From contig JAUIHT010000002.1 of NCBI GenBank assembly GCA_030432235.1, positions 249,136-313,135 on the forward strand: a stretch of DNA of 64,000 nt. Direction: 5' to 3'. The first letter of the stretch is position 1; each line of letters begins with the position of its first letter. Made by a program: the position numbers and the translations under genes. A model generated the notes under the pieces. The model was not told the origin of the DNA, searched no databases, and saw nothing but the letters and a program-made list of their open reading frames with translations. Below, piece by piece: positions 33,189-59,994 of this stretch. The stretch is from Verrucomicrobiia bacterium. GTDB taxonomy: Bacteria; Verrucomicrobiota; Verrucomicrobiia; Opitutales; Cerasicoccaceae.

Positions 33189-33289
33189 TTTTCCTGAGAC
33201 CGTCCAGAACGTCAAGCGGGACACCGCACTCCAACAGGCTGGGCCAGGGAATACCGTGCCGCCGACCGGCGATCAGAAAGTGATATATG

Positions 33290-33360
33290 CTGCGGGGGAA
33301 GGATTCGAACCTTCGATGGCGGAATCAAAATCCGCTGTGTTACCGCTACACCACCCCGCA
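33290..33360 (-). tRNA. tRNA-Gln (UUG)
   Basis: Acceptor TGCGGGG/CCCCGCA (U1-A72, as in bacterial Gln), D arm GTGT-AGCGGTA-ACAC, anticodon loop TTTTGAT, T arm GAAGG-TTCGAAT-CCTTC, discriminator G. Confidence 0.8.
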
Positions 33361-33370
33361 AGGTAAAAAG

Positions 33371-33442
33371 TATCCGCAGCCGGAATCGAACCGGCGTTCT
33401 CACAGTGAAAGCGTGATGTCCTGACCACTAGACGATGCGGAC
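33371..33442 (-). tRNA. tRNA-Glu (UUC)
   Basis: Acceptor GTCCGCA/TGCGGAT (G1.U72 wobble), D arm GTCT-AGTGGTCA-GGAC, anticodon loop CTTTCAC, T arm GCCGG-TTCGATT-CCGGC. Confidence 0.75.
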
Positions 33443-33448
33443 AAAAAG

Positions 33449-33524
33449 TGGAGGCGCCGCCAGGATTCGAACCTGGTGAAACGGATTTTGCAGACCCGTG
33501 CCCTGGCCATTCGGGATCGGCGCC
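33449..33524 (-). tRNA. tRNA-Cys (GCA)
   Basis: Acceptor GGCGCCG/CGGCGCC, 3-bp D stem, anticodon loop CTGCAAA, T arm CCAGG-TTCGAAT-CCTGG, U73 discriminator (Cys identity element), CCA encoded. Confidence 0.8.
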
Positions 33525-33664
33525 GTATCAGATAAAAAACTTCGGGAGGCCGCCGCCCGGTCACCCCCGCAACACCTGTCAGGGTGCCATTGCCTGGCGC
33601 TATGTGACCGGGTGGGCTGCCTTCATCCCGAAATGTGTTTTGGGGATACTGTTAGAACCCCAAG

Positions 33665-33737
33665 TGGGAGCACATGGTTTCGAGCCATGACCTCCCGGTC
33701 TTCAACCGGACGTGCAGACCATCTACACCATACTCCC
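33665..33737 (-). tRNA. tRNA-Phe (GAA) with non-canonical T loop
   Basis: Acceptor GGGAGTA/TGCTCCC, D arm GTGT-(9-nt loop)-GCAC with G18G19, anticodon loop TTGAAGA (G37 rather than A37), T arm CATGG-CTCGAAA-CCATG (C at position 54). Confidence 0.6.
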
Positions 33738-33745
33738 TGAAATGG

Positions 33746-33818
33746 CTCGAAGGGCAGGCTACGATCCTGCAACTGCGTCCTTAACAGGGACGTGTTCTGC
33801 CAATTGAACTACCTTCGA
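33746..33818 (-). tRNA. tRNA-Asn (GUU) with non-canonical T loop
   Basis: Perfect acceptor TCGAAGG/CCTTCGA (U1-A72, as in E. coli Asn), D arm GTTC-AATTGGCA-GAAC, anticodon loop CTGTTAA, T arm GCAGG-ATCGTAG-CCTGC (A54/U58 swapped relative to the usual T54/A58), discriminator G. Confidence 0.65.
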
Positions 33819-34786: not shown

Positions 34787-35344
34787 TTACGCGCGGCTCA
34801 GGTAGGAGCCGTCGGTGGTGCTGACGCGGATAACCTCGTCCTGCTTAATGAAAAGCGGCACCTGCACGGACAGCCCGGTCTCGGTGGTGACGGGCTTCTG
34901 CACGTTGGACGCGGTGTCACCCTTGATGCCCTCGGGGGCATCGATCACCTTCATCTCGACGGCAGCGGGGAGGTTGATGTCCACCGGCTTGTCGTCGACC
35001 ATAAGAATGTCGTAGGTGTTGTTCTCGATCAGGTAGTCCTTGTACTCCTCGCAGATATCGGTCGGCAGGACGCTGTCCTCAAAGGACTCGGGGTCCATGA
35101 AGTGGTAGCCCATGTCGTCAATGTAGGAGAACTCCAGCTTCTGCGTACCGGTGTGGAGGAAGTCCACGCTGTCGGTGGAGCGGAACTTCGCCGTGGTCGA
35201 AGCGCCGGTGTTGAGGTTGCGCATAGTCACCTGCACGAAGCCGGCCTGACGGCCCTGCGTGCGGTGCTGCATCAAGAGAACGAGGTGCGGTGCGCTCTGA
35301 TAATCAAGGACGCGACCTTTACGGATTTCGGTGGGGGATGCCAT
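34787..35344 (-). CDS. efp: elongation factor P
   Basis: 185 aa. Three EF-P OB-like domains. Modification loop reads TQGRQAGF, with Arg at the position equivalent to E. coli Lys34. Confidence 0.95.
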   Translation of the reverse strand: MASPTEIRKGRVLDYQSAPHLVLLMQHRTQGRQAGFVQVTMRNLNTGASTTAKFRSTDSVDFLHTGTQKLEFSYIDDMGYHFMDPESFEDSVLPTDICEEYKDYLIENNTYDILMVDDKPVDINLPAAVEMKVIDAPEGIKGDTASNVQKPVTTETGLSVQVPLFIKQDEVIRVSTTDGSYLSRA

Positions 35345-35508
35345 GGTTGGAATGCTGGTTGGAAAAACGTGGCAGCAAGGGGGATTTCCCGGCGACTGTC
35401 AATCGCGCAGAATGCGTGGATAAGCCCCCATTATGTGAAAAAGACGGCACAAAAGCGTTTTTTCGTTTCAGGACGGAACAGAAACGGCTTACAAAGAACG
35501 TCCCGACT

Positions 35509-38500: not shown

Positions 38501-38970
38501 AGATGCTCCGGCCCGAAACCCAGGACCTGGATATCTTTGCCGACGGCATGGACAACATCATGGCCACCCACCATCGTGTCGCCGGGCTGTACTTTGAGGA
38601 CGGCTCCATCGAGGGCGCCATCCCGCCACTCAAGGCCCTCCTCCATATCATGAAAGACGGCAACTACGAGGGCAAGGGACTTGAGCACCCGGACATCCGC
38701 GCGCTCTTCACCCGCGAGTCGGTCATCGAAAGCGACTGGTATCAGGAACGCCTGGCCTGCCGCCAGAAGCTCCAGGTCGCCCGCTGGGAAAACGCCCTGC
38801 AGTGCCTGAATTCCTTCAACAACGAGCCTTCACGCGCCGCCGAGGCCAAAATGATGGATATCCCAGCCCGCATCGACCTGGCCAAGCACGCCATCGCCGC
38901 CGTTCAGGCCAAGGCATATCTCGGCAAGCTCAGCGGCACCCTCGGCACCGACCCGTATTTGCACGGCTGA
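35509..38970 (+). CDS. very large conserved hypothetical protein (1153 aa)
   Basis: Uninterrupted 3.46 kb frame with strong codon bias. The track ORF from 35290 overlaps efp, so the start was set to MSIDLQKAIG at 35509. No Walker, HTH, TM or signal motifs recognised. Confidence 0.6.
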   Translation: MSIDLQKAIGITPGKRETPSRDPFLLEYANLKLASLGQPIFGTRKDYPVMRLAHPLLRDYQEKNRLLAGYLCPVDARIQSFIDRYLGSLDESEPRPRLPSSTFTADRHGLARMLSLPPDKDHFASDIIDSYRLHQGVLHNPKSDRRTTQGVFHVAEGGLPIPADKLAVPKVTFARMLERALQPPSELMQLPFTASQEEKAELWVSLLLRPVVCPAVPGAISEKRYEVRFFAPGNLVSNLDFVESIFGNAGDPYLGENDAALDVDGWTGHSGCVILAPHLIRCTKKELGLPNIADATERQKRDKMCWEKEDELYNGGGAFKLTTRDASGVVVTIIADNYFGYCKKEVKTQISFSANLYGLTEEEHSGGAIAFPSYDLGEDFILPQSLPDADYTFDDFLKRYGDSVNVTEEGYAVDKTHPDILFVPEDAAFSLQEQSVKWERGGKQCELRLRPGVTYVLPSGYKVEMVRRHSGQRWRLIGITAEGTFCHKPCTVSGGGKSEISKSIGDAMIFGPAIVADYQKDFDFVEEIIDKEYGERFKDESKNRKAGRPLLSPARSLGSVVKLLTPSPEYKPDYNTWLKTIPFYIKELVFIVKRFYKEDWGKDWRSRFNVDLVNGTSGNELKYRNGKLVSQYLRVGYTAEGAWRTFGLRKDFSPAFKLQLEDDITASAVFPVDQVDGLPAESLHPSVKLALNCEYRLFQRPDDAIHRGYDKRTESDMSLPGNFFSNYAPLTREQAQAIVDDTIRFDQYTDPIKELIRDFLAKPNGEYLSLPSHPRIVDGKPTKNPRYLQDRDDLVDPRSFYLGQLGLQLNRKLPLGAPAPMPVNAVLPGRRNNPPEDGIRPLAVFNPLHYLPLPEFFMEVVSSMTGKSPSTTGAGSEGALTKGPFNALPPVVDLNNALVSFLLTGYPPFISAAGYVGPKCRVDHDISLLVPELWCRMRGREQEPAWLIEEEMLEKCEDIEHKGKTIPGSMLGYRITEKFVIRIFGRMFANPAAVFTPEMLRPETQDLDIFADGMDNIMATHHRVAGLYFEDGSIEGAIPPLKALLHIMKDGNYEGKGLEHPDIRALFTRESVIESDWYQERLACRQKLQVARWENALQCLNSFNNEPSRAAEAKMMDIPARIDLAKHAIAAVQAKAYLGKLSGTLGTDPYLHG

Positions 38971-40869: not shown

Positions 40870-41021
40870 ACCATGGGTTTTCACAAGGCGCAGATAAACC
40901 CACGATCGCTTCAGGCGCAAAGCGTTTTTATCTATCGCGCTTGCTATTGACATTTAACTGCCAATTAATGCTTGCAGAGCCCGAGCTTTCCTCTTTGCAT
41001 CGCTTCAAACCTGACAACCCA

Positions 41022-42167
41022 ATGCATAAGACAACCACCCTCTTCATCGCTCTCAGCCTGCTCGGCGCCGCCTCCGCGCCAGCCTTAACCCAGGGTTTCG
41101 AGGCCTTCGGCATCGCCGCCGACACCTTCGAGGAAGGCCCCACGCCCAATGCCGTGGTTACGGAGACGACAGATCCCTTCGGGCCGGACAGCGGCCTGCA
41201 AATCACCGCCAACGGCATCTGGCATACCGGCGACGCGATAGGCTTCCGTAATATCTTCAACGAAGTCGAGAACCCCGTCGGCACCCTCTCCTACACCTTC
41301 TGGAACGGCGTCGGGCTCTCCACCCTCGTCGACACGACCACGGAGGGCTTTGCCAACGAAGGGGCGGCCTATACCGGAGGCGGCGCCAATTTCTCCGGCG
41401 AAATAGTCCCCGGCGGCGCCTATGGTATTGTCTTTCCCTTTTTTGAAAACACCAGCGAGATCGCCCTCAGTGCCTATTACTCCCTGCAAGGCATGTACAT
41501 CACCAACACCACCTACGCTGCCCTGGCCATGCTCAACGGCAACGGCGTCTCCCGGCAGTTCGAGCAGGGTGACTGGTTCCAGATGACCATCACCGGCCTG
41601 GATAGCGACGAAAACGTGACAGGCCAGTTGTTCGTCTTCCTGGCCGATTACCGCTCCAGCAATCCCGACGATCATTACATCCTCGATGAGTGGGAATGGA
41701 TCGACATGAGCGGCTTCGGAGAGAGCACCGCCAATTTGCGCTTCTCCTTCTACTCCTCGGATGTCGGCGAGTATGGCATCAACACCCCCACCTATGTGGC
41801 CATCGACAACGTGGTCCTTACGGCTAAAGCCCTGGCCGGCGCAGTGCCGGTTGCCGATGGCTGGAGCTATTCGCCGTGGTTCGGAGATTACTACGACGCC
41901 AACCTGCCCTGGGTCTACCAAAACGACCTCGGCTGGCTCTACCTGGACCCACAGAGCACCCCCGACGACATCACCTTATACAGCAACCTGCTAAGGTGGG
42001 CTTACACCACCGCCGAAGCGTATCCCTGGCTCTACGTCATGGACGAAGGCGCCTGGCTCTATTACATCAAGGGAACAGAAAACCCGTGGCTCTTTTACGA
42101 CGCCGATACCAAGGAAATCGTCGAATATCCACATGACATCGACCTTGAAATCGGTGTAGCGGATTAA
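41022..42167 (+). CDS. secreted hypothetical protein with C-terminal Trp/Tyr-rich module, upstream of the TonB receptor
   Basis: Signal peptide MHKTTTLFIALSLLGAASAPA. C-terminal DLGWLYLD...PWLYVMDEGAWLYY, shared with the 57427..59994 protein. Confidence 0.5.
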   Translation: MHKTTTLFIALSLLGAASAPALTQGFEAFGIAADTFEEGPTPNAVVTETTDPFGPDSGLQITANGIWHTGDAIGFRNIFNEVENPVGTLSYTFWNGVGLSTLVDTTTEGFANEGAAYTGGGANFSGEIVPGGAYGIVFPFFENTSEIALSAYYSLQGMYITNTTYAALAMLNGNGVSRQFEQGDWFQMTITGLDSDENVTGQLFVFLADYRSSNPDDHYILDEWEWIDMSGFGESTANLRFSFYSSDVGEYGINTPTYVAIDNVVLTAKALAGAVPVADGWSYSPWFGDYYDANLPWVYQNDLGWLYLDPQSTPDDITLYSNLLRWAYTTAEAYPWLYVMDEGAWLYYIKGTENPWLFYDADTKEIVEYPHDIDLEIGVAD

Positions 42168-44161: not shown

Positions 44162-44908
44162 TTATTCAGAGCGGCGGCGCCATACCACGAAACCAATCAC
44201 GGCAATACCGCACAGGACAGCGTACAGGGAAGGCTCCGGAACCACAGTGATGTCATCCACGTAACTGGTGTAGGCACCGTAATCGCTGCCGGTTTCGCCA
44301 GCGCCTACGCGCACCTCCAGCACACCCAGATCGCCCCAGAGACCACTGCCCGTCGAGAAGCCACTAAGACTAGAGAGCGTATCAACGGTACTGGCTGTAG
44401 AGTAGGACGAACCCAGTCCGGGACGAGCGCCTACCACATGCACATCCGTGCCTCCATCGATGCCACTGATCTGCCAGGTATCAAACTGAACTGCCGGGCC
44501 ATCCGTGATAAAGGCAATAACAAACGAATCGTCCCCGAAGTTAAAGGTCTGGTCGCCATTGGTATCCACTCCGAAATACATGTAAGGCAGGTATGCCGGG
44601 TTCCCCGAAGAAATGTAGGAATAGAATGTGCCTGCGGCCTCTTTGAGGGATAAGGAACCAGGCGCAAAGTCGATGATTACCTTCGCGAAGTCTGTTACCG
44701 TGTTGGCGAGCGAGAGTTGCGCCGAGTGCGTAGGGCTCAATGCCTGATCTTCGCTTAGTACCGCCGTTCCAGCGCCGTCTCCGTCGAGACTGTATCCACC
44801 GGATTCAAAATCGACGTAGCGGTAAGCAGCAGTCAACAGGCTATTACCAAAAATCAAAGAGGCGGCAATGATCGCCAACTTGTAGTAGTTTTTAGTGAGT
44901 GGTTTCAT
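44162..44908 (-). CDS. PEP-CTERM sorting-domain secreted protein
   Basis: Start at MKPLTKN (44908), preceded by AAGGAGATATAAAG. C-terminus VVPEPSLYAVLCGIAVIGFVVWRRRSE. Confidence 0.75.
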   Translation of the reverse strand: MKPLTKNYYKLAIIAASLIFGNSLLTAAYRYVDFESGGYSLDGDGAGTAVLSEDQALSPTHSAQLSLANTVTDFAKVIIDFAPGSLSLKEAAGTFYSYISSGNPAYLPYMYFGVDTNGDQTFNFGDDSFVIAFITDGPAVQFDTWQISGIDGGTDVHVVGARPGLGSSYSTASTVDTLSSLSGFSTGSGLWGDLGVLEVRVGAGETGSDYGAYTSYVDDITVVPEPSLYAVLCGIAVIGFVVWRRRSE

Positions 44909-45253
44909 CTTTATATCTCCTTTATTAGCGTTTTTCAGATATACTTCAACGATTACGAGGATATTCTCGATGTCCACAACCAAACAGTACTTGTAATAGA
45001 TCTCAGTTAAAAAAGCATTAATAGAGTCATTTATCATAATAAAATAGGGCATATGCCCTATCTCCTGATTGCCCTAGTCCCACTGGACAGACATCGGCAC
45101 CTATTTGTAGCCTTACTCCCCCGCCAACGGCCGCACCTTGAAGGTCGGTATGCGGTTAAGCTTCTAAGCGTCAGTCTCAATATTAGAATCCCTAACCCAC
45201 TTGGACTGAACAACTTGCTTGAAAAAGGGGCTGATTCTGCTTTGCTACTAATC

Positions 45254-47520: not shown

Positions 47521-48594
<1,074 letters not shown>

Positions 48595-48633
48595 GGAAAC
48601 GCTGAAATTCTGAAAAAGCTGAAAAACTTTCAA

Positions 48634-48664
48634 GCCGTCGGGTCACCCCCGGCGGCTTTTTTTT
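48634..48664 (+). terminator. rho-independent terminator after gap
   Basis: GCCGTCGGG-tcacc-CCCGGCGGC stem followed by a run of eight T. Confidence 0.6.
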
Positions 48665-48764: not shown

Positions 48765-49331
48765 TTACAGCCTCTGCCGGACGGCTTCGAACAAGCACAC
48801 GCCGGTGGCGACGGAGAGGTTTAGACAATCCATAGGCCCCATCATGGGGATGCGCACGAGGAAGTCGCACTTCTCGGCGATTTTCTCGCGCAGGCCGCGG
48901 GCTTCGGAGCCCATGACGATGCCGAGCGGGCCTTTAAGGTCGACCTCGTAGAGCAGCTTGGACTCCTCGTCGCCGGTGCCAACGAGCCAGAGACCGGCGT
49001 CCTTCAGCCGGGTGAGGAGCTGGTTGAGGTTGCCCACCTGGATATAAGGCACGTGGTCAGAGCCACCGGTGGAGATTTTGCGCACGGTCTCGGTCACGCC
49101 CACAGTGTGCTTGAGCGGCGCGAAGACAAAATCCACGCCCGCGGCGGCGGCGGAACGCAGGCAGGCCCCGAGATTGTGCGGGTCCTCCACGCGGTCGAGA
49201 ATGAGCACGAGCGGATTCTCCAACGCCTCGATGCGCGCGAGGGCCTCGCTCTCGTCCATGGGCTCGACGAGTTGCTTCTTGGAGACGTGGCGGTTTTCGC
49301 GTCCGCCGAGATTTCTACGTGAATTAGCCAT
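48765..49331 (-). CDS. TrmH/SpoU-family RNA 2'-O-methyltransferase (RlmB-like)
   Basis: SpoU motifs: LILDRVEDPHNLGACLRSA, GIVMGSEARGLRE and the C-terminal trefoil-knot region. Confidence 0.8.
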   Translation of the reverse strand: MANSRRNLGGRENRHVSKKQLVEPMDESEALARIEALENPLVLILDRVEDPHNLGACLRSAAAAGVDFVFAPLKHTVGVTETVRKISTGGSDHVPYIQVGNLNQLLTRLKDAGLWLVGTGDEESKLLYEVDLKGPLGIVMGSEARGLREKIAEKCDFLVRIPMMGPMDCLNLSVATGVCLFEAVRQRL

Positions 49332-49414: not shown

Positions 49415-50686
49415 CTAAAAACTAACGGCCAGGCGCTCGGTGGGTGCGGCAGGCGGCTCGGGGCGGGCGCGTCCGGGGCCGGGATAGTCAACATAGCCGA
49501 CGGCCTGGCGCAAGGCCTCGGCCAGGAGCATGGCGTTGCGGTGGCTGTCGAAATGCGTCTCCACCCAGTGGCGGGCAGCCTTGCGAATCTGCTCCGTCGC
49601 AGCGGGGTTCTCCTGTATTTCCCGGATGGCCGCGACCCAGGCCTGCGGTTTGGCCGTCGAAATCACCCAACCGGTGCGCCCGTGCGAGATAGCTTCGATG
49701 GTACCGGAGACCGGCGAAGTCAGGACCAGCAAACCGCTGGCCATGGCCTCGGGGATAACGTTGGGCAGGCCGTCGCGGTCACCATTGGCCGCCACGCGAC
49801 CAGTGAAGGCCATAATGTCGGCCCAGGCATACTCCTCCTGCACGGCCTCGTAGTCCAGCCAGCCGACGAAAGTCACCTCACGGCGCAGGCCGAGCTTTTC
49901 CCGGAGAGCAAGCAGTTCGTCCCGGAGCCTGCCGTCACCGATAATCCGCGCCTCGAAGGGCACACCGGCTTCCTTGAGAGCTTGGTAGATGTAGAGTTGG
50001 TCGTCGAAGCCCTTCTTTTCCACCATGCGCCCGACGGAAAGCAGGCGGATGGGCTTCATGGCCTGACGCAGGGGCTTAAACGCGGGAAAGTGATCCAAGC
50101 CACGGCGAATCAGCACCACCCGCTCGGGGTTCGCCTCCAGAGCAATCAGGCGGCGGCGGGTAGCCTCCGTGGTGGTATGGATGAGTCGGGCGCTGGCTAC
50201 CTTGGCAGGCAACAGGCAATCACCCCCATGCAGGAAGACGTCGTAGGCGTGCGCCCCCATGCTGTAAGGGATGCCGGTGAGCTTATGCAGCAGCCAGGCG
50301 GCCGTGGCGGGCATGGTGGCCCAGACGCCATGCAGCAGGTCGGGCTTATCTTTCTCGAAGCGCCGGGCCATCACCACCGCAAAGCCCAGCCCCATGAGCA
50401 ACTCGCCGAGGTTTTGCATGCAGCGGATGTCCTGCTGGTAGAGGCGTTGTAAAGTGCCGCGAACGACGTCCGGGCGGCGACATATCCAGTAAGGCAAGGC
50501 CCAGAGCAACCGCAGCAGGTAACGATGTCGAAAATGGTTTACCGTGTGGCCCTCCCAGGACTTCTTACCCTTCCACAGCGAGTGTATCTGAATATCGACG
50601 CCCTGCCGCGCCATCAGCCGCAGCTCGCGCTGGAGAAAGGTTTCCGACGCAACGGGAAACGTGGTAAACAGGTAAGTAATGCGCAT
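49415..50686 (-). CDS. glycosyltransferase family 1 (GT4-type)
   Basis: 423 aa. GT-B fold with the EAMASGLLVLTSPVSG (E-x7-E-like) donor-binding region. Confidence 0.85.
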   Translation of the reverse strand: MRITYLFTTFPVASETFLQRELRLMARQGVDIQIHSLWKGKKSWEGHTVNHFRHRYLLRLLWALPYWICRRPDVVRGTLQRLYQQDIRCMQNLGELLMGLGFAVVMARRFEKDKPDLLHGVWATMPATAAWLLHKLTGIPYSMGAHAYDVFLHGGDCLLPAKVASARLIHTTTEATRRRLIALEANPERVVLIRRGLDHFPAFKPLRQAMKPIRLLSVGRMVEKKGFDDQLYIYQALKEAGVPFEARIIGDGRLRDELLALREKLGLRREVTFVGWLDYEAVQEEYAWADIMAFTGRVAANGDRDGLPNVIPEAMASGLLVLTSPVSGTIEAISHGRTGWVISTAKPQAWVAAIREIQENPAATEQIRKAARHWVETHFDSHRNAMLLAEALRQAVGYVDYPGPGRARPEPPAAPTERLAVSF

Positions 50687-50713
50687 GGCGCGATCTTCCC
50701 TTTCTGGGATGCA

Positions 50714-51967
50714 CTAAATGTGCTGGAAGATCAATGATACATTTGCGCCGCCAAAGCCACTGCTGTTGGACATGGCGAGCGCAGGGCCCTTGTCTTCGGT
50801 TTCCTTGATAATGCGCAGGCCGGTCGCCTCGGGGTCGAGGGACATGATGTGCGCGGAACCGGGCATGAAATTGTGACGCAGGCCGAGGACAGTGAAGGCT
50901 GCCTCCATGATGCTGGCCAGGGAAAGGCCGTGGCCGGTCAGCGCTTTGGTGCTGCTGATGGCGGGACGGTCGCCGTTAAAGGTCTGCTTGAGCGCGCGGA
51001 TTTCCGACAGGTCGCCGATGGGTGTGGAAGGCGCGTGGGCGTTGATGTAGTTGATGTCCTTGAGGGAAACCTTGGCGCAGGCGGCGGCGCGGCGCATGGC
51101 ATTGGCCAGGCCGTCCCCGTCCGGGTGTGAAATGGCGACGTTGTAGCCGTCCGAGGCCTGTCCCCAGCCCACCATACGGGCGTAAATGGTCGCGCCGCGC
51201 TTGCGGGCCAGCTCCTCATCCTCCAGCACCATGACGACGGAACCGCCGGTGCCGACGAAACCGTCGCGGTCCTTGTCGAAGGGGCGCGAAGCGATTTCCG
51301 GATCCTTGCACTGGCTGAGGGCGCGCATCCCGGCGAAAGGCAGGATGCTCTCACGGTTGCCGTCTTCGCCACCAACGACGAACATGCGCTTCTGGCGGCC
51401 CAGGGTGATTTCGTCCCAGGCGTATCCCAAGGCGTGCCCGGAGGAAGCACAGGCGGAGACGAAGCCCGCCGAGGCGCCTTTGATGTGGTAGGCCGATGCG
51501 AGGTTGAAGGTCAGCGTGCCGACAATCGAATTAACGATGCCGAGGGGCGAGCATCGGTTGACCCCGTGGCGATTCATACGCTCCAAATGCGAATGCAGCA
51601 TCTTGGCCGAGCCCGCCGAAGCGGTGAAAATGCCAGTGTCTAGATTGGACACCTCCTCTTCGCTCAATCCGGCGTCCTCGATGGCCTGCTGCATGGCACA
51701 GTAGGCGAACAAACCGTGCGGAGCCAGCCCGCGCAATACTTCACGGCGAACGCGATACGCATCCGGATAGGTCCAGTCTTCCGGATCGCAACTGTTGACG
51801 GAAAAGTCCTTGACCGTGCCGGCCAGCTTGACGGGAGAGTCCGCCCCGGCAAAATCCGGAAAATAATCAATCCCGTGGCGCAACTCCCGCAGATTGTCGA
51901 GCACGGTCACCTGCTCGTTGCCGATACTGGTGACGAAACCGAGTCCCGTGATAGCTACTTGAGGCAT
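50714..51967 (-). CDS. beta-ketoacyl-ACP synthase (KAS I/II-type, Cys-His-His)
   Basis: Start at MPQVAITGLG (51967), preceded by AAGGAGACT. Active-site ACASSGHA (Cys), NAHAPST (His), TGHGLS (His). Confidence 0.85.
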   Translation of the reverse strand: MPQVAITGLGFVTSIGNEQVTVLDNLRELRHGIDYFPDFAGADSPVKLAGTVKDFSVNSCDPEDWTYPDAYRVRREVLRGLAPHGLFAYCAMQQAIEDAGLSEEEVSNLDTGIFTASAGSAKMLHSHLERMNRHGVNRCSPLGIVNSIVGTLTFNLASAYHIKGASAGFVSACASSGHALGYAWDEITLGRQKRMFVVGGEDGNRESILPFAGMRALSQCKDPEIASRPFDKDRDGFVGTGGSVVMVLEDEELARKRGATIYARMVGWGQASDGYNVAISHPDGDGLANAMRRAAACAKVSLKDINYINAHAPSTPIGDLSEIRALKQTFNGDRPAISSTKALTGHGLSLASIMEAAFTVLGLRHNFMPGSAHIMSLDPEATGLRIIKETEDKGPALAMSNSSGFGGANVSLIFQHI

Positions 51968-51996
51968 AGTCTCCTTGAATGAAAACGTGGCAACGA

Positions 51997-52878
51997 TCAG
52001 CCAGCGGAACCAGGACCCTCCTGAGCTACGCTTTCCGCCTCGCCACAAAAATCAAATATCAAGGAGATTTCTTCAGCAAAAGCAACCTTTTCCGTACCTG
52101 CCATGATGTGTCCTTCGAAGCTGGCAAGCGGATGACGAATCCGTTTGGGCTTGATGCTCAGCGTCAATTTGTCCCCCGGTTTGCAGAAGCGGGTACAGCG
52201 GATGCCGTCACAGGAACTGAAAAAGACCTTATCCTTATCCACCTGCTTGGGTAGACTTTCAGATTTTGTTTTAACCAGGTAAAGCACGGCAAGCTGTCCT
52301 AATGCCTCTAGCATGATAGATGCCGGAAAAACCGGATTACCTTTAAAATGCCCTTCGAGGAAAAATTCATCCCCCGCGATGCGATAGGTGCCTCGGGCTT
52401 CGCTCTGGCGCAGGGTGGCATCCTGCAGAAACAGGAAAGGCGGGCCATGGGGAAGATCCTGATAGATTTCTTCTATAGGGATGTGGAGGGCCTTTTCGGG
52501 CAGTGGCAGGCCCTTCAGCTTGCAATCAATGAATATTTTGACGTCCCCAACGGTGCGGAGGTCGCGCAACTCGTTGTTGTCAATGGAGATGTCCAAGGTT
52601 TCCTCCACCAGCATGATAACCTCGACCAGAGTCAGGGAATCGACCCCAAGGTCCTCAAAGATGCGCAATTCGTCAGCGCCGTTTTTCAGACGCGGGCGGA
52701 TATCCGGCTCCAGGAAGCGCTCGATAATACCGAGGATAACGACCGGAATCAGGTCTGTGTTTCCCGTACGTCGGTAGGACAAGGCTGCCTCAATCGACTC
52801 TGGAGAGCAGCGCTTGAGGGAATCTTTGATAAGTTCCTCTTCCTCGGGAGTGAGGTTTTTCACTGTAGAATCAGCCAT
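51997..52878 (-). CDS. acyl-carrier-protein domain fused to FabA/FabZ-type hotdog dehydratase
   Basis: N-terminal ACP with phosphopantetheine site LGVDSLTLVEV. C-terminal hotdog with FFLEGHFKGNPVFPASIMLEALGQ (FabZ catalytic His motif). Start was set to MADSTVKNL at 52878. Confidence 0.7.
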   Translation of the reverse strand: MADSTVKNLTPEEEELIKDSLKRCSPESIEAALSYRRTGNTDLIPVVILGIIERFLEPDIRPRLKNGADELRIFEDLGVDSLTLVEVIMLVEETLDISIDNNELRDLRTVGDVKIFIDCKLKGLPLPEKALHIPIEEIYQDLPHGPPFLFLQDATLRQSEARGTYRIAGDEFFLEGHFKGNPVFPASIMLEALGQLAVLYLVKTKSESLPKQVDKDKVFFSSCDGIRCTRFCKPGDKLTLSIKPKRIRHPLASFEGHIMAGTEKVAFAEEISLIFDFCGEAESVAQEGPGSAG

Positions 52879-53048
52879 GCGTAATCTCTCATAAAGGGCA
52901 TCGTATCTGGGAATGTAAACCTCTTTTTTAAGGGGCAATTCGAATAGTCTGCCAGCAAACAGGATGGTAAATTGCAGTGGAAGCCCTGTCTACCAACGGG
53001 TGAGAATAGGATTAAATCGGCACCGGTTAGCATTTTCGATGCCGGGTC

Positions 53049-53846
53049 CTATTTTCGTTGAGCCGCATCACGCCAGGCAGCTGGATTACAGCCTAAGTTG
53101 CGGCGAAAAGCGCGGGAAAAGCTATCCGGATCCGCATAACCGCAATGGCTGGCCACCACCGCTACCGGGGCGGTGGTCGAAACGAGCAACTGGCAGGCAG
53201 CCTCCAGACGCAGCTCCTGCAGGCGCTTGCCGGGCGAGGTGCCGTAACGTTGGCGGTAGTTACGCGTGAAGTGCTCGCGGCTCATGCCACTGGCACTGGC
53301 AACCTCACTGACGGTAATAGGGAGCCGGAAGCGCGTCTGCATGTAGTCTTCGGCAAAAGCAATGGAATCGCGCTCAAGGGGGACCATAAGCGCATCACGG
53401 GACAGCGCCATAAAAAAACCGTAAGCCAGCGAGGACTCATGATAGACGTCCTGGAACTTGCGGCTGCGCATTCGCTCAAAGCATTCTTTGAAGAGCCGAT
53501 CGCTTTCCGTTCCACGCGCCAGGCTCACGACCGGCCCAACGCGTTCCTTGATTGCCTGCATCGCCGAAACCGCCAACTCACCCTCGAAACTGAGAAACTC
53601 GTGCCGGTAGAGCTCCGTTGCATCCGCTGGATAACCGTAGCTGGAGTTTTCGCCATGGATAAAAAGCATCGCTTTGCCAACTCCGGCGCGGTATTCGATA
53701 CCTTCTACTTCGATGAAGCCCTCCCCTTTCAGTGTCCGTTGCACCACCGCCAAACACGGCCCAGGACGATCACGATTCTGATGGAAGTAGCGTTCCGATT
53801 GTCGCTCCTCCATCTGTCCCCAGCTGCACCTGATCAAAGCATCCAT
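53049..53846 (-). CDS. AraC-family transcriptional regulator
   Basis: C-terminal dual HTH (VSEVASASGMSREHFTRNYRQRYGTSPGKRLQELRLEAACQLL), N-terminal cupin-like sensor domain. Divergent from the GH4 gene. Confidence 0.85.
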   Translation of the reverse strand: MDALIRCSWGQMEERQSERYFHQNRDRPGPCLAVVQRTLKGEGFIEVEGIEYRAGVGKAMLFIHGENSSYGYPADATELYRHEFLSFEGELAVSAMQAIKERVGPVVSLARGTESDRLFKECFERMRSRKFQDVYHESSLAYGFFMALSRDALMVPLERDSIAFAEDYMQTRFRLPITVSEVASASGMSREHFTRNYRQRYGTSPGKRLQELRLEAACQLLVSTTAPVAVVASHCGYADPDSFSRAFRRNLGCNPAAWRDAAQRK

Positions 53847-53973
53847 ATTTGGCCCTAATCACAAATATCCGGTTAATTATCATAAATATCAATTGGTAAA
53901 TCGATAAATTTATCAGAATAATAGGCAATAATTCCAATCTCCGGATTCACCAAAATCACAAATAGTCACATTC

Positions 53974-56127
53974 ATGCCTTGTAAAATTACCCTCATCGGC
54001 GCCGGCTCAGTCGTCTTTGCCAAGACTCTAATCGGCGACATCCTGCAATTCCCCGAACTCTCGGATGCCCACATCTGCCTGATGGACATCAGCCCGGCGC
54101 GATTGAAGGTTGCCGACATCATGATGAAAAAGATCGTGGCGAAGCTGGGCGTGAAGGCGCGTGTCGAATCCACCAGCGATCAGCGCAAGGCCATCAAAGG
54201 AGCCAAATACGTCATCTGCACCGTCCAGGTGGGCGGCTACCAGCCCTCCACCCGGCGCGACTTCGACATCCCGAAGAAGTACGGGCTGGAGCAAACCATC
54301 GCCGACACCCTCGGCGTCGGCGGCGTCTTCCGCGGCCTGCGGACCATCCCCGTCATCAACAGCATCGCGCAGGACATCGCCGATCATGCGCACCCCGACT
54401 GTCTTTTCCTGAACTATTCCAACCCCATGGCCATGAACTGCTGGGCGGTGGACGAAGGCGTGGGCATCCCGCACGTAGGCCTGTGCCACTCGGTCTTCGG
54501 TACTGCCATGATGCTGGCCAGCCATGCCGGCCTGCCCTACGAGGACGTCAGCTACCTGGTGGCCGGCGTCAACCACATGGCCTTCTTCCTCAAGTTCCAG
54601 TACCGGGGTCAGGACGCCTATCCGCTGCTCTTCAAGGTGCTCGAGGATCCCGAACGCAATTACGAACTGGTCCGCTACGAAATGATGCGCCGCACCGGCT
54701 ACTTCGTCACCGAGTCCAGCGAGCACCAGAGCGAGTACCTGCCCTACTTCATCCACCACGGCAAAAAGGTCATCGATAAATTCTGCATCCCCATCGACGA
54801 GTACCTGCGCCGCTGCGAAGCCATCATTTCCACCTGGCAGCAAACCGAAGACACCCTTCTGGGCAAGGACCGCGACATCGACGTGTCTCCACAGTCCCAC
54901 GAATACGGCTCCTACATCATTCACTCACGGGAAACCGACACCCTGCGCACCGTCTATGGCAACGTCCCCAATGACGGCCTCATCGACAACCTCACCCAGG
55001 GCTGCTGCGTGGAAGTGCCCTGCCAGGTGGATGCCACCGGCCTGAATCCTCTGAAGATCGGCGCCCTCCCCGAGCAGCTAGCGGCCCTCTGCATGACCAA
55101 CGTCAACGTCCAGCGCCTGACCGTCGAGGCCGCCCTGACAAAGAAGCGCGAGCACATCTACCACGCCGTCATGGCAGATCCCCACGCCTCTTCGACCCTC
55201 ACCCTCGACCAGATCTGGTCCATGTGCGACGAGCTCATCGAGGCCCACCAGAAGGACGGTTATCTGGGCGAGTTCGCCCCCACCATTAAGGATACCGGAC
55301 GCAGTTATGCCGGTGTCGGCGACCGGGTCATTGCCAAGGTCAAAACCAAAGGCGAGCAACTCCACAAAGCGGGCAACAAGTTCACGGTCATCGTCGAGGT
55401 CGAGAATCCGGGCGAAAAAGATATCAGCGTGCCGCTGCTGCTCAGCTCAAGCAACCCGCAGCTCAAGCTCGAAAAGAGCAAGCTCAAGATCGCCGTCAAG
55501 CGCCGCGCTACGGCCAAAGTACAAATTCAGGCCAAGGTGCTGGAAGTCATAGAAGAGCCGGTGAAACTGCAATTGGATACGGACGACTCCAACGTTCTGG
55601 CCATCGGCAACAAGCTGCTGCCACGACGCCTTCTGGAGAAGGCCGACGACGGCCTCTCCCACTTCAAGCTCCAACTGGCCGGATTCGACGCGGCCGTCGG
55701 CTCGCTCAAGCGCACGGACAAGCATCTGGAAGTCCGCATGCGCATAACCGACTCGGACATCAAGCCCAACGAAGCCGCGCCGCACAAGGGCTCGGTCGTC
55801 GAGCTGTTCTTTGCCAGCGAGGATAAGCCCGTCATCAAGCAGGTCTTTGCCATCCCCGGCAAGAAGTCCGGCGTGCAACTGGTCTACCGTGGCCACAACA
55901 AGATTCCGGGCGCAAGCGTCACGGCGAAGAGAAGCAAAATCGACTACAGCTTCACCGCCAAGATTCCGCTCTCCGAAATCGGCGTGGCGAAGAAGGGGCC
56001 GTTCCTCTTCGATGTGCTCTGCACCCTGTCAGCCCTGGGCGACGCCCACTCGGGCGGCCGTTGCTCCCTCGGCAACAACTTCGGCAGCTTCCTCAAGACG
56101 GAGCACTACCACCAGGTTAATCCCTGA
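53974..56127 (+). CDS. glycoside hydrolase family 4 (alpha-galactosidase/MelA-like) with about 270-aa C-terminal extension
   Basis: N-terminal NAD Rossmann motif (KITLIGAGSVVF), GH4 catalytic region (Cys in NYSNPMAMNCWA, His in GLCHSVF). Residues after about 450 have no recognisable motif. Confidence 0.8.
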   Translation: MPCKITLIGAGSVVFAKTLIGDILQFPELSDAHICLMDISPARLKVADIMMKKIVAKLGVKARVESTSDQRKAIKGAKYVICTVQVGGYQPSTRRDFDIPKKYGLEQTIADTLGVGGVFRGLRTIPVINSIAQDIADHAHPDCLFLNYSNPMAMNCWAVDEGVGIPHVGLCHSVFGTAMMLASHAGLPYEDVSYLVAGVNHMAFFLKFQYRGQDAYPLLFKVLEDPERNYELVRYEMMRRTGYFVTESSEHQSEYLPYFIHHGKKVIDKFCIPIDEYLRRCEAIISTWQQTEDTLLGKDRDIDVSPQSHEYGSYIIHSRETDTLRTVYGNVPNDGLIDNLTQGCCVEVPCQVDATGLNPLKIGALPEQLAALCMTNVNVQRLTVEAALTKKREHIYHAVMADPHASSTLTLDQIWSMCDELIEAHQKDGYLGEFAPTIKDTGRSYAGVGDRVIAKVKTKGEQLHKAGNKFTVIVEVENPGEKDISVPLLLSSSNPQLKLEKSKLKIAVKRRATAKVQIQAKVLEVIEEPVKLQLDTDDSNVLAIGNKLLPRRLLEKADDGLSHFKLQLAGFDAAVGSLKRTDKHLEVRMRITDSDIKPNEAAPHKGSVVELFFASEDKPVIKQVFAIPGKKSGVQLVYRGHNKIPGASVTAKRSKIDYSFTAKIPLSEIGVAKKGPFLFDVLCTLSALGDAHSGGRCSLGNNFGSFLKTEHYHQVNP

Positions 56128-56500: not shown

Positions 56501-56995
56501 TTACGGCTCCAGGATATAGGTGTAGGCGGAGCCACTGTTGCTTTGAAAGGATCCCGAGGTCAGGCTTCCGTCGTCGAGCATCTGGTCCAGGCGCGCCATG
56601 AACTCATCGTCAGCCACGGAATCGCGCAACGATATGCCCGCCGTAAAGGAAAAGGCGCCCGGTCCCTCCCAGTCCCAGGTGCCCTCCATGACGGAGGCTT
56701 GCTCAAAAGTGCCTTCGGTGATGTAGCCATCCATGACACTGGGGAGGACGCCCGGACTCTCGTCATCCGGCCATTGCCCGTTCTCCATGGCGTAGGTTTC
56801 AAAGCCGGAGCGGAACTGCCGGTAATCGTTGGCCAGGCGGCTCTTGTAGGTGCCTTCCTTGGCCGTGCGTACCGCCGGGACGGCCAGCAGGGCCAGCAGC
56901 CCGATGACCACGACGACTACCATGATTTCAACCAGGGTAAACCCAGGCGAACGTGCTGCTCTCTTCGCGAGTATCTGATGGATGATCGGTTTCAT
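56501..56995 (-). CDS. prepilin-type N-terminal cleavage/methylation domain protein (type II secretion/type IV pilin-like pseudopilin)
   Basis: N-terminal GFTLVEIMVVVVVIGLLALLA prepilin motif after a basic leader. Confidence 0.8.
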   Translation of the reverse strand: MKPIIHQILAKRAARSPGFTLVEIMVVVVVIGLLALLAVPAVRTAKEGTYKSRLANDYRQFRSGFETYAMENGQWPDDESPGVLPSVMDGYITEGTFEQASVMEGTWDWEGPGAFSFTAGISLRDSVADDEFMARLDQMLDDGSLTSGSFQSNSGSAYTYILEP

Positions 56996-57426: not shown

Positions 57427-59994
57427 ATGAAAACAAGCATACTCTCCTACCTAAGCCAGGGACTGCTTTCCCTGTCCCTGATGAGCCTTACCCTCGGTGG
57501 TAGCCTTCACGCCAAAATCGACGACTACACCCAGAACAATCACTGGGAATTCTCGAAAAATCACGAAGCCAATGTTTCACGCATGGAAACCATCGGCTGG
57601 GCTGATCGGCTCTTTTATTTCTGGGCCAAAAATGATGGCCACCTGGCGTACCGTGCCGCGAAAATCGAACTGAGCGCCAGCGACAAACCTGTGATTAAAA
57701 ACGAAGGCCAGGAAAAGAATTTCGCCAAAGGCTGGGATCACAAAAAGGTTGGCTTTGCCCCCACTCTGTACGGAGACGACCTGTACTTGTTCATCTACGT
57801 GGATGGCGGCAAGTCCATGGCCTACAGCGTTTTTCGCAAGGAAGCCGACAATACCGCGGTCAAGAATATCTCCACCACGGAGACCATTAAGCTCAAGCTT
57901 GAGGGGCAGCCGAAGGGTTTCACCATCGGCACCATGACCGCCTTCACCATCGAGGGGGAAATCTACCTGCTCATCGGCGACGCCAGCGGGACTTCGCTGG
58001 AGCCCTACATCTTCCACTTCGACAAGGTCACGAAAGCAACGTACCTCGGCTCGCTCTCCAAGCTGGGTGCGCCCAGCGGCACGACTCCCCTGACTCCGGA
58101 AAGCACGCAGCGTTACCGCGCCGCCAACCTCATCGTGGACGATGAAAACGGCGATCCCCTCGAGGTGGCCGTTATCAGTTACATGCGAGATACCGACATC
58201 GTCGGCGTCGTCGCCTTTGACGGCGAAGGGATTATCAGCGGCAAGACCTTTACTAAAAAGCTACTGGGCCTGGGCAGTAAAAGGGCCCTGGAAACCGTCA
58301 GTCTCGCCCTGGGTGGCCTGCGGGGCGGCCCGAAGATCGAGGATGCCGCGTTGCAGCTTGTCCTGACATCGGACGACAAGGCTATCAACGCCCACGGCCT
58401 GCATTATACCCATAAAGGCGGGTTCTTTCTCTACGGCTCCTCACTGTCCTATGAGGGCAAGGACTGGTTCGACAATTTTCCCGGCGCCAGCATCCTCAGT
58501 GTGCGCGGCAACACCGTCATCGTCCCCTCAAAGGCGCATAAAGGCTCCCTGCGGCGCGTGGTGGTGATAACCGGCGGCGGCGCCAATTCCTCCCAGTCCC
58601 AAATCGACGTCAACGCGACCCAGTCGGACGTCCTGCGACCCGTCCAACAAGTGGCTATCGACACTCAGAACGCCACCTTGCGTGAGCTCCCCAAGGGAAC
58701 CGCGCAGCCCATACTCGACGACACGATCGCCAACAATCTCTCCCGTCTCTGGAATCTGCTCGGGGTCATCACCGGTGTGCCTCCCTACACCAGCACCACC
58801 CCGCCCGACAAGGTCACCAGCAGCATCAGTTGGAACAAGACCGATACGCTGACCAGCCAGGTCGACCATTCCAGCTCCGCCTCCACCTCGGCCGGCTTCC
58901 TCGGCAAGGCGCACACGGGTGTCGGCGGCTTCAACTTCGGCGCGGCCAGGACCTGGACGACCGTCAACTCCACCAAGCGCACCATCAGCTTCGGCTTCGA
59001 CATCAAGCTCACCGCGCCCGTGACGAAGAAGGGCGAGATCACCGGCTGGATGGTCGTCTACCAGCCCATCATCCTGGCAACCCTCTTCCACGAGTATGCT
59101 CCCAACAACAAGGACGACTACGGTCGTTACTACATCGTCTACACTCAGGACGCCACGCTGAATGCCGACCGCAACGTCAACCTGATATCCTTCCCCCTGA
59201 CCGCTCCCAACGACCTGCTCTCGCCGCTTTCCAACGGCATGTTCGGTGGCGACCCTCTGGAAGGCTGGCCCAGCAGCAACGATCCGGTGGGCTGGCACAA
59301 ACAGGTCTTCGACGGTTATCGCGACGGCATCGGTCTGCCTGCCATGACCACCACGGTGAACGCCTCGGAGTCCGCCAGCACGTTCGTCGATGAAAACAAC
59401 GCCAAGCAGAAAGCCCAGAAAATCGACTGGAGCATGAAGCTGGAACTGCCCTTCGACCTGGGTGCGTTTCTGGGAGCCGGCCTCGGTGGTGGCCAGACCT
59501 GGACGACCACCAACACCCAAAGTACCGCGTTCTCGCAGGCCCTCACCCTTGAGCTTTCCCAAATCGAATCGACTGGAGCCATCGGCGAAATTGACCGCTA
59601 CAACCTGCTCCCCTATCTGCTTTATCCGAACAGTGATGCCAACTGGATCCCCTGGGACGGCTTCCCCCAGTCCGCTCCCTGGTGCCTGAGCTACATCGTG
59701 ACCGGCCTGCACAAGCGCGGCGACGAATTACTCGGCACCTTTGCCTTCGGTGACGTCTATCAGGATAGCAACAACGCGAACAATCTTTACTCCGATTGGC
59801 TCGGCTGGCTGTACGAAACTGACACGCCCTGGTTCTTCGACTACCGCCGCCACCGCTGGCTCTACAGCTACATCTCCTCCATGCCGGACAACTTCTGGTA
59901 CTACAGCGAAGACAAGAGCTGGGCCTGGACTCAAGACGTTCTCTACCCCTGGTCGTACGTGGTTGAGGACGAAGCCTGGTCCTACGACCCATAA
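57427..59994 (+). CDS. large secreted hypothetical protein (855 aa) with C-terminal Trp/Tyr-rich module
   Basis: Signal peptide MKTSILSYLSQGLLSLSLMSLTLGGSLHA. Beta-rich body. C-terminal WLGWLYETD...PWSYVVEDEAWSYDP, matching the module in the 41022..42167 protein. Preceded by a 430-bp AT-rich leader. Confidence 0.55.
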   Translation: MKTSILSYLSQGLLSLSLMSLTLGGSLHAKIDDYTQNNHWEFSKNHEANVSRMETIGWADRLFYFWAKNDGHLAYRAAKIELSASDKPVIKNEGQEKNFAKGWDHKKVGFAPTLYGDDLYLFIYVDGGKSMAYSVFRKEADNTAVKNISTTETIKLKLEGQPKGFTIGTMTAFTIEGEIYLLIGDASGTSLEPYIFHFDKVTKATYLGSLSKLGAPSGTTPLTPESTQRYRAANLIVDDENGDPLEVAVISYMRDTDIVGVVAFDGEGIISGKTFTKKLLGLGSKRALETVSLALGGLRGGPKIEDAALQLVLTSDDKAINAHGLHYTHKGGFFLYGSSLSYEGKDWFDNFPGASILSVRGNTVIVPSKAHKGSLRRVVVITGGGANSSQSQIDVNATQSDVLRPVQQVAIDTQNATLRELPKGTAQPILDDTIANNLSRLWNLLGVITGVPPYTSTTPPDKVTSSISWNKTDTLTSQVDHSSSASTSAGFLGKAHTGVGGFNFGAARTWTTVNSTKRTISFGFDIKLTAPVTKKGEITGWMVVYQPIILATLFHEYAPNNKDDYGRYYIVYTQDATLNADRNVNLISFPLTAPNDLLSPLSNGMFGGDPLEGWPSSNDPVGWHKQVFDGYRDGIGLPAMTTTVNASESASTFVDENNAKQKAQKIDWSMKLELPFDLGAFLGAGLGGGQTWTTTNTQSTAFSQALTLELSQIESTGAIGEIDRYNLLPYLLYPNSDANWIPWDGFPQSAPWCLSYIVTGLHKRGDELLGTFAFGDVYQDSNNANNLYSDWLGWLYETDTPWFFDYRRHRWLYSYISSMPDNFWYYSEDKSWAWTQDVLYPWSYVVEDEAWSYDP

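Follow-up and report, generated by a model that had tools for sequence, protein, structure and literature searches.

A carrier protein fused to a FabZ-like dehydratase in the Opitutales: a conserved gene trio with a possible role in envelope glycolipid synthesis

What might a bacterium make with an acyl carrier protein (ACP) that is joined to a dehydratase in one polypeptide, encoded ahead of a single beta-ketoacyl-ACP synthase (KAS) and a glycosyltransferase? The question is raised by a 64-kb stretch of DNA from a Verrucomicrobiia bacterium of the order Opitutales (GenBank assembly GCA_030432235.1, contig JAUIHT010000002.1, positions 249,136 to 313,135), called here the window, in whose numbering coordinates are given. 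Four co-directional open reading frames (ORFs) were confirmed on its minus strand, encoding an AraC-family regulator of 265 residues (53049..53846), the ACP-hotdog fusion of 293 residues from its ATG (51997..52878), an elongating, FabB-like KAS of 417 residues (50714..51967) and a GT-B glycosyltransferase of 423 residues (49415..50686). A preliminary description had grouped all four as a cassette with short gaps headed by the regulator. The four ORFs stand, but tight packing is limited to the last three, with 29 nt between fusion and KAS and 27 nt between KAS and glycosyltransferase, whereas 170 nt separate the regulator from the fusion gene. The core unit is, on the sequence evidence, a three-gene operon comprising the ACP-FabZ fusion, the FabB-like KAS and a glycosyltransferase of CAZy family GT4, and it is conserved across the order Opitutales. 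We give an even chance to the reading that this operon would be a dedicated side branch of fatty-acid synthesis feeding an envelope glycolipid, either associated with lipopolysaccharide (LPS) or glycosphingolipid-like.

The fused carrier, its synthase and the glycosyltransferase

In the fusion protein Pfam places a PP-binding domain at residues 74-113 (E-value 2.1e-7) and a FabA-like hotdog domain at residues 144-267 (1.9e-16). The presence of both in a single polypeptide, as first described, is genuine. A frameshift artefact of two genes was ruled out by 1,865 homologues found in a search of 5.8 billion proteins, by an alignment of 22 homologous sequences and by confirmation of the same architecture at at least 507 genomic loci when one genome per GTDB species was scanned. 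The best 120 of the 1,865 homologues are all 279-385 residues long and 55-81% identical to the query, and precomputed Pfam annotation gives both domains for most of them, with about 12 listing hotdog families only. The loci belong almost entirely to Opitutales, Opitutaceae or unclassified Verrucomicrobiota, with the addition of one short Kiritimatiellia contig, and existing annotation of the family does not go beyond 'phosphopantetheine-binding protein' or 'acyl carrier protein'. An in-frame TTG at 52938, upstream of the ATG, is unused in relatives, one of which (L083; loci fetched from other genomes carry L numbers) has an in-frame stop there in the alignment.

An AlphaFold (AF2) model of the fusion (pLDDT 85.6) shows, from the N-terminus on, three extra helices, an ACP with the normal four helices and, after a linker, the hotdog domain. 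The extra helices (11-20, 26-38 and 41-54) form an N-terminal extension of residues 1-58 (52705..52878, minus strand), which carries a conserved LKRCSPET..EAA..FR.TG motif; conservation was judged from the 22-sequence alignment, in which E14, R23, C24, A31, R36, G50 and R54 of this extension are invariant. The acyl carrier domain occupies residues ~59-124 (52507..52704, minus strand) and matches PP-binding PF00550 at 31.5 bits against a cut-off of 20.8. Its predicted phosphopantetheine serine is Ser81 in LGVDSLTL (codon 52636-52638), which lies at the start of helix 81-95 of the model and within the invariant D80-S81-L82. The DSL at residue 19 was rejected as the carrier site, the conserved serine being Ser81. 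The carrier scored 39.3 bits against the AcpP family TIGR00517 (cut-off 70.45) and fell below every AcpP equivalog cut-off in NCBIfam, and it is unlike AcpP in layout too, having an N-terminal extension of ~58 residues and a C-terminal fusion.

The dehydratase domain, of the FabZ-type hotdog fold, spans residues 131-274 (52057..52488, minus strand). It aligns with FabZ structures, including the anammox protein amxFabZ, at Foldseek template modelling (TM) scores of 0.87-0.92, and FabZ proteins and ACPs are the best sequence matches of the fusion in the PDB. The predicted catalytic residues His177 and Glu191 are invariant and fall within GHFK..P..PAS..(L/I/M)EA(L/V)GQL, which is conserved in homologues. 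Scores against FabZ families were 67.9 bits (NF000582, cut-off 113) and 58.4 bits (TIGR01750, cut-off 155), both short of the threshold, and those against FabA families were 24.7 bits (NF003509, cut-off 124) and 24.3 bits (TIGR01749, cut-off 238), from partial alignments only. By these comparisons the dehydratase is FabZ-like rather than FabA-like.

Proteins related to parts of the fusion occur elsewhere in the order. Stand-alone proteins of 120-156 residues in the Opitutaceae combine the same N-terminal extension with an ACP domain; all 15 that were aligned have the DSL serine. At the two loci examined (L091 10001-10471 and L092 10001-10429) their genes directly follow those for an extracytoplasmic function (ECF) sigma factor, a FecR anti-sigma factor and a TonB-dependent receptor; this unrelated context is an odd one for a carrier protein, and these proteins were rejected as a link to a known system. 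A second hotdog paralogue is present in one Opitutales metagenome-assembled genome (L004 4980-5462, minus strand), ~1.2 kb upstream of the fusion gene and on the opposite strand; it shares 43% identity with the dehydratase domain across 161 residues.

The KAS gene has an AAGGAG ribosome-binding site 8 nt upstream, and its product contains both the N- and C-terminal ketoacyl-synt domains (PF00109 at 102.8 bits, PF02801 at 100.7 bits). Cys173 (codon 51449-51451), His311, Lys341 and His346 align with the active site of Pseudomonas aeruginosa FabB, and the proposed Cys-His-His elongating ketosynthase is borne out by Cys173, His311 and His346 in this alignment. The top 17 PDB matches are all KAS I/FabB (272-242 bits) with FabF reaching at most 208 bits. 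The protein scored 335.8 bits against the NCBIfam KAS I family NF005935 (cut-off 630) and 321.6 bits against FabF (TIGR03150, cut-off 493.75), in both cases below the threshold. Its sequence is nearer to FabB than to FabF.

The glycosyltransferase matches Glycos_transf_1 at 102.8 bits (1.9e-29; gathering threshold 26.4) and Glyco_transf_4 at 32.4 bits (1.2e-7; gathering threshold 28.5). Its best NCBIfam match is the GT4 enzyme EpsE, at 130.7 bits over the full length and below the cut-off of 400; other named relatives are WcaL and PEP-CTERM/exosortase-associated transferases, and the best PDB match is the lipid mannosyltransferase PimB'. The enzyme is read as GT4 because its best named NCBIfam relatives are GT4, and we take the Pfam 'glycosyl transferases group 1' label to denote that CAZy family here. 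The UDPGT-type family of CAZy GT1, which we take to be Pfam PF00201, is absent among its Pfam matches at E <= 0.01. The earlier assignment to GT1 thus reflects the Pfam 'group 1' name and is replaced by GT4.

A further co-directional gene lies 83 nt downstream (48765..49331, minus strand). It encodes a SpoU/RlmB-family RNA 2'-O-methyltransferase of 188 residues (SpoU_methylase 4e-39), which scored 182.7 bits against RlmB TIGR00186, above the cut-off of 160.15. L083, L084 and L086 also have this gene behind GT4, with a 4-nt overlap in two of the three, and it was found near the fusion gene at none of 80 more distant loci. It is probably the last gene of the cassette transcript in this lineage and functionally unrelated to the others.

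Gene order in relatives and the region upstream of the fusion

The neighbourhood of the fusion gene was compared at 80 loci from GTDB genomes, the denominators below being the loci with enough flanking sequence. A KAS gene lies directly downstream at 68 of 75, and an orthologue of the window's GT4 enzyme is found downstream of fusion and KAS at 30 of 55. A GT28 or diglucosyl-diacylglycerol-synthase-like transferase also occurs downstream (41/55), as does a short-chain dehydrogenase/reductase (SDR; 31/55), and a YbgC-type thioesterase gene lies upstream at 52 of 73 loci. An alpha-oxoamine synthase (AOS) is encoded within 8 kb at 14 of 52. The GT4 orthologue is kept downstream of KAS across lineages at 44-50% identity despite rearrangements, and in all close relatives the two genes directly adjoin. 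The view that fusion, KAS and glycosyltransferase genes form a tightly linked unit is therefore upheld by gene order kept across relatives.

In the close relatives L083, L084 and L086 (72-81% identity) the fusion, KAS, GT4 and SpoU genes stand in a row, and the gene upstream differs: a prepilin-type ORF in L083, a UDP-sugar pyrophosphorylase gene in L086, and in L084 an AraC gene with a divergent alpha-galactosidase gene. L085 and L087 are near-duplicates of L084 and L086 respectively. Onward from the cassette in L084 the other strand carries GT9, AOS, GT4, GT2, KdsD/KpsF, KdsB and AMP-binding enzyme genes; KdsB and KpsF/KdsD both pass their family cut-offs and lie 5-9 kb from the triad. In L088 the order is GT9, fusion, KAS, GT28, GT4, followed on the other strand by AOS, GT4 and SDR. 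In L089 thioesterase and GT4 genes are divergent from a string of fusion, KAS, GT28, GT4 and GT4, after which come AOS and nucleotide-sugar genes, and L090 has fusion, KAS, GT4 and GT4. Stop and start codons overlap within the unit in L088 and L090, which indicates co-translation. GT9 heptosyltransferase-like genes adjoin the triad in L027/L036, L084 and L088.

The AOS enzymes near the triad in relatives, L084, L088 and L089 among them, have serine palmitoyltransferase (SPT) as their top NCBIfam family (349-389 bits, below the cut-off of 640). The best solved homologue is the Sphingobacterium SPT (286 bits), with the next family reaching 244 bits. For the SDR of L088, the 3-ketodihydrosphingosine reductase KdsR is the best of 180 family matches (134.6 bits, below the cut-off of 400). 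No ceramide synthase candidate was identified in the relatives' loci examined.

Cerasicoccus arenae (L001/L002) departs from the common order. Its fusion and KAS genes lie beside an exosortase gene and a GT5/GT1-type gene, the exosortase (EpsH family) gene being divergent from the fusion, and KAS is followed by a 524-residue protein with no Pfam or NCBIfam match in place of GT4; these departures lie at 8782-9936 and 12299-13873 of the locus. This order is in keeping with a reading in which the fusion-KAS pair and GT4 are functionally unrelated, GT4 serving an exopolysaccharide or LPS glycan and being merely co-transcribed, as the rlmB-like gene would be. The same reading would account for the names of the best NCBIfam matches (EpsE, WcaL and the PEP-CTERM/exosortase-associated transferases) and for the unrelated rRNA methyltransferase gene in the string. 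It has against it the retention of the GT4 orthologue behind KAS through the rearrangements just described, the overlapping codons of L088 and L090, and the fact that GT28 and diglucosyl-diacylglycerol-synthase-like transferases have been inserted between KAS and GT4 without replacing the association. We consider it improbable.

Upstream of the fusion gene, a motif, AAAAAGAGGTTTACA (52914..52928, minus strand), lies 36 nt from the ATG. It contains an A-tract and a -35-like TTTACA, is unique in the window (0.01 copies expected) and is retained ahead of the fusion gene in L083, L084 and L086, although the preceding gene is a different one in each. It is non-coding, since L083 has an in-frame stop between motif and ATG. 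An A-tract with TTTACA was found upstream of the fusion at 19 of 90 loci, a count that includes two matches inside the coding start and the near-duplicate pairs L084/L085 and L086/L087. The motif is a candidate for the cassette's own promoter or a regulator site. No intrinsic terminator was found between the AraC and fusion genes or inside the cassette, site counts not exceeding those of shuffled sequence, and an Rfam scan of 48.5-54.2 kb for a riboswitch or RNA leader gave only two sub-threshold matches to Burkholderia small RNAs, both at the terminator of the glyceraldehyde-3-phosphate dehydrogenase (GAPDH) gene. A strong 11-bp, GC-rich hairpin with a T-run after it (48632-48658) lies in the gap that separates the rlmB-like gene from the convergent GAPDH gene (47569-48594). 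It probably ends the GAPDH transcript and possibly that of the cassette too.

A side branch of fatty-acid synthesis and its possible product

If the operon is a side branch, a cycle of the following kind can be envisaged. The carrier would be phosphopantetheinylated on Ser81 and malonate loaded by the housekeeping FabD, after which the dedicated KAS would condense an acyl primer with the malonyl-carrier. The 3-keto group would be reduced by the housekeeping FabG, or by the cluster SDR of other Opitutales, the fused FabZ domain would dehydrate the 3-hydroxyacyl chain borne by the carrier of the same subunit or of an adjacent one, and an enoyl reductase would close the cycle. The private carrier would separate the chain from phospholipid synthesis; an envelope glycolipid pathway could then receive it, and the GT4 enzyme would add a sugar to the lipid or its glycan.

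The module had been called self-contained, a term that has to be given up. No ketoreductase, enoyl reductase or malonyl transferase was found anywhere in the window, so the unit must borrow them, and a search of the same 64 kb for a second ketosynthase (KS), ACP or hotdog protein and for an AcpP-like gene, SDR, GT28, thioesterase, AOS or GT9 found none of these. The companion suggestion that the unit is unlikely to serve bulk fatty-acid synthesis is supported: none of ACP, dehydratase and KAS reaches the curated threshold of a housekeeping counterpart (AcpP, FabZ, FabA, FabB and FabF), which fits a specialised role. As to the product, the company that the triad keeps in relatives (GT28, GT4, GT9 and Kdo genes, and genes for a thioesterase, a KdsR-like SDR and an SPT-like enzyme) makes an outer-envelope glycolipid the most likely one. 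The glycosylated lipid first suggested is plausible in view of the many lipid- and LPS-type glycosyltransferases encoded beside the unit in those genomes. Gene structure, domain identity, catalytic residues, conservation and synteny are observed; transcription, substrates and product are inferred.

Several observations weigh against a side branch leading to a glycolipid. The link to glycolipids rests on the synteny of other genomes, the window itself being without an SDR, GT28, thioesterase, AOS or acyltransferase. The best named relatives of GT4 are the exopolysaccharide enzymes EpsE and WcaL, so that its substrate may be a polysaccharide rather than a lipid. A FabB-like KAS after a hotdog gene, as in fabA-fabB operons, fits unsaturated fatty-acid synthesis. 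In the proposed promoter, the -10 element shows little conservation. A search of the 92 fetched Opitutales loci for a housekeeping acpP or fabF, as signs of a separate type II fatty-acid synthesis set, found neither within those stretches.

The third of these points leads to a rival in which the operon would make unsaturated fatty acids anaerobically, as a module of the FabA/FabB kind. Here the FabZ-type domain would also isomerise the trans-2 intermediate to cis-3, as FabN does in Enterococcus, the FabB-like KAS would elongate the cis intermediate and the glycosyltransferase would be a mere neighbour. The order of a hotdog gene before a KAS I-like gene matches that of the Pseudomonas fabAB operon (PMC3462791), neither unit includes a ketoreductase or enoyl reductase, and the top 17 structures matched by our KAS are all KAS I/FabB, scoring ~50-60 bits above FabF. 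Isomerases of the FabZ type are known (fabN/fabO; PMC9671860), and occurrence in at least 507 species is as expected for a core function. Set against the Pseudomonas operon, the present unit differs in its FabZ-type dehydratase, its carrier fusion, its linkage to a glycosyltransferase and scores below both FabA and FabB cut-offs. Against FabZ the hotdog domain scores 67.9 bits, compared with only 24.7 against FabA, and the KAS, at 335.8 bits, is well under the FabB cut-off of 630. A private, fused carrier would moreover hold intermediates away from the AcpP-dependent phospholipid acyltransferases, a desaturase-family protein encoded in the window (28702-29790) could supply unsaturated chains aerobically, and the recurrent synteny with glycosyltransferases, thioesterase, SDR and AOS would be left unexplained. 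We judge an unsaturated fatty-acid module unlikely.

The dedicated side branch has a parallel in the rhizobial acpXL-fabZXL-fabF1XL-fabF2XL-lpxXL cluster, which provides the very-long-chain fatty acid of lipid A and in which AcpXL is the dedicated ACP (PMC5613085). In both, a dedicated carrier, a FabZ paralogue and one or more elongating KAS paralogues are clustered, housekeeping reductases are needed and the output goes, or here would go, to an outer-membrane glycolipid. In the Opitutales unit, by contrast, carrier and FabZ form one polypeptide with an extra N-terminal helical extension, a single FabB-like KAS replaces two FabF-like enzymes, LpxXL is missing, GT4 is the conserved third gene and the phylum is another. 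A strict AcpXL-type system, in which an unusual chain (for example very long or hydroxylated) would pass from the dedicated carrier to lipid A and GT4 would be an LPS core transferase, is suggested by the GT9 heptosyltransferase-like genes beside the triad in L027/L036, L084 and L088 and by KdsB and KdsD 5-9 kb away in L084. It is made doubtful by the lack of any LpxL/LpxXL-type acyltransferase in the window or in the Pfam-annotated relatives, by the one FabB-like KAS where two FabF-like enzymes would be looked for and by the absence of any NCBIfam match to lipid A enzymes, and there is little reason to favour it.

A second parallel is offered by sphingolipid synthesis. Proteobacterial SPTs use a specialised ACP, AcpR (PMC9386255), and the AcpR/AasR/Spt module, together with the Spt and KdsR steps of Bacteroidetes, resembles the loci of relatives in which a specialised ACP is linked to an SPT-like enzyme (L084, L088, L089 and the 14 of 52 GTDB loci with an AOS within 8 kb). 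The SDR adjacent in L088 has KdsR as its best match, and an AMP-binding enzyme is encoded nearby in L084. The differences are that the window has no Spt-like gene, that no ceramide synthase homologue was seen and that the AOS and SDR of relatives fall under their family cut-offs. An ACP that shares its polypeptide with a dehydratase and has a KAS for partner implies de novo extension and not the loading of a free fatty acid. A bolder version of the glycolipid reading, which we offer as speculation with a low prior expectation, is that there may exist an undescribed route of the Opitutales, perhaps of the wider Verrucomicrobiota, to a glycosphingolipid-like outer-membrane lipid. The acyl donor of the SPT-like enzyme would be built de novo on the FabZ-fused private carrier and extended by the FabB-like KAS, the keto group would be reduced by the KdsR-like SDR and sugars would be added by GT28 and GT4, the window holding the core acyl-building genes and the first glycosylation gene. 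A Black Sea metagenome study counted Spt-like genes in 22 bins of Verrucomicrobiota, which does not establish a pathway (PMC11334938). With the AcpR precedent and the SPT-like and KdsR-like enzymes of relatives, it makes a sphingolipid-like product a realistic possibility.

The preliminary description had also raised the possibility of a polyene. Clusters for aryl-polyenes and flexirubins are characterised by a KS and chain-length-factor (CLF) pair, a ketoreductase, two dehydratases, an adenylating starter enzyme, an acyltransferase and an exporter. Comparison of the architecture with these and with ladderane clusters revealed no KS-CLF pair or other hallmark in the 64 kb: the KS is single and has no chain-length-factor partner, a second dehydratase, ketoreductase, adenylating enzyme, acyltransferase and exporter are all absent, and the genes around the unit are unrelated ones. 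The KS is also far closer to FabB/FabF than to other beta-ketoacyl-ACP synthase families, some of which we take to be aryl-polyene-type. A pigment or specialised polyene lipid cassette of aryl-polyene, flexirubin or ladderane type would find some encouragement in weak precomputed Pfam matches of the hotdog domain to PF22818 (ApeI-like), in amxFabZ among its structural neighbours and in the pairing of a dedicated ACP with a FabZ variant, which also marks the ladderane cluster (PMC10139942). The anammox amxACP/amxFabZ pair, like ApeI-type dehydratases, shares with the fusion a specialised ACP, a variant FabZ-fold dehydratase and similar folds; the other ladderane or aryl-polyene genes are absent here and the sequence is closer to ordinary FabZ. 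FabZ, and not ApeI or amxFabZ, is the best match in both structure and sequence, and such a product is very hard to credit.

Upstream neighbours, the wider window and significance

The AraC protein has the expected double helix-turn-helix and cupin-like ligand domains (HTH_18 at 78.5 bits, 4.6e-22; AraC_binding at 25.3 bits, 1.4e-5). Divergent from its gene is one for a GH4 MelA-like alpha-galactosidase (53974..56127, plus strand; Glyco_hydro_4 and 4C), which scored 602.5 bits against NF011657 (cut-off 486) and is 45% identical to MelA of Escherichia coli, where melR, encoding an AraC-family protein, is likewise divergent from melA. The likeness to melR-melA concerns the AraC gene only and has limits: the regulator is not a MelR orthologue, its similarity not being significant beyond the family fold, and no melB-type transporter gene lies beside the pair. 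Three exact ATCAYAAATA repeats, starting at 53858, 53879 and 53955 (53858..53964, plus strand), are found in the 127-nt region between the two genes, two of them spaced 21 nt apart; they are the only exact copies in the window, none lying upstream of the fusion gene, and a single similar copy is present at the corresponding place in L084. They are candidate operators for AraC, to which it may bind. AraC is absent in L083 and L086, two of the three close lineages, and present in L084 with the GH4 gene; it is 50% identical between window and L084, the cassette proteins being 66-82% identical. At the 80 GTDB loci AraC was found anywhere near the fusion in none and an alpha-galactosidase in one. 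We judge that the AraC gene belongs to a separate, MelR/MelA-like alpha-galactosidase unit and not to the lipid cassette. As a cassette regulator it is ruled out by synteny and by the location of the repeats, which are confined to the alpha-galactosidase side, and the cassette is accordingly not headed by AraC. The alpha-galactosidase itself has a C-terminal extension of ~290 residues with no Pfam match, its length being conserved in L084 (717 residues).

Elsewhere in the window the membrane fatty-acid-desaturase-family gene (28702-29790, plus strand) diverges from the gene of another AraC-family regulator (27770-28654, minus strand), beside which a PAP2-family membrane protein is encoded (26373-27782); the region 26373-29790 may be a regulated lipid-modification unit, for which NCBIfam gave no specific family. 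Eight tRNA genes are clustered at 32964-33818 (minus strand), among them a predicted tRNA-Pro with anticodon AGG that overlaps the adjacent tRNA-Met by 2 nt; this anticodon is believed to be unusual for bacteria. The gene at 10693-12273 joins an ABC-3 metal-transporter permease to the C-terminal metal-binding/dimerisation domain of a DtxR-type repressor (Fe_dep_repr_C), with a ZnuA-type binding-protein gene nearby (13043-13975). Envelope-type genes of a kind associated with Verrucomicrobia are present at 44162-45052 (a weak PEP-CTERM (FxDxF) match), 56501-56995 (a protein with a prepilin-type N-methylation motif) and 40941-42167 (a DUF4465 protein beside a TonB-dependent receptor), and two large ORFs, at 35290-38970 (1226 residues) and 57427-59994 (855 residues), have no family match. 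Around the loci of relatives, ORF clusters c1, c3, c6, c7, c20 and c22 are probably not genes but shadow or alternative reading frames of real ones, the DNA being GC-rich; c20 and c22, the two of the six that were scanned, gave no family matches.

Opitutales are abundant in soil, freshwater and host-associated communities. The literature searched held nothing on their envelope lipids, no paper on the fusion family was found and nothing specific was returned for an ACP, dehydratase, FabB or sphingolipid of Opitutaceae or Opitutus. The separation of the regulator from the cassette corrects an annotation trap, in which the regulator of neighbouring sugar catabolism could be mistaken for that of the cluster. 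Only a few systems are known in which a dedicated carrier diverts fatty-acid synthesis to a special envelope lipid, among them AcpXL (lipid A) and AcpR (sphingolipids of Proteobacteria). To these the operon would add an order-wide, unstudied variant from outside the Proteobacteria, its carrier joined to a dehydratase and partnered by a FabB-like synthase, and it offers a concrete, testable gene set for what may be an envelope lipid of the Verrucomicrobiota.

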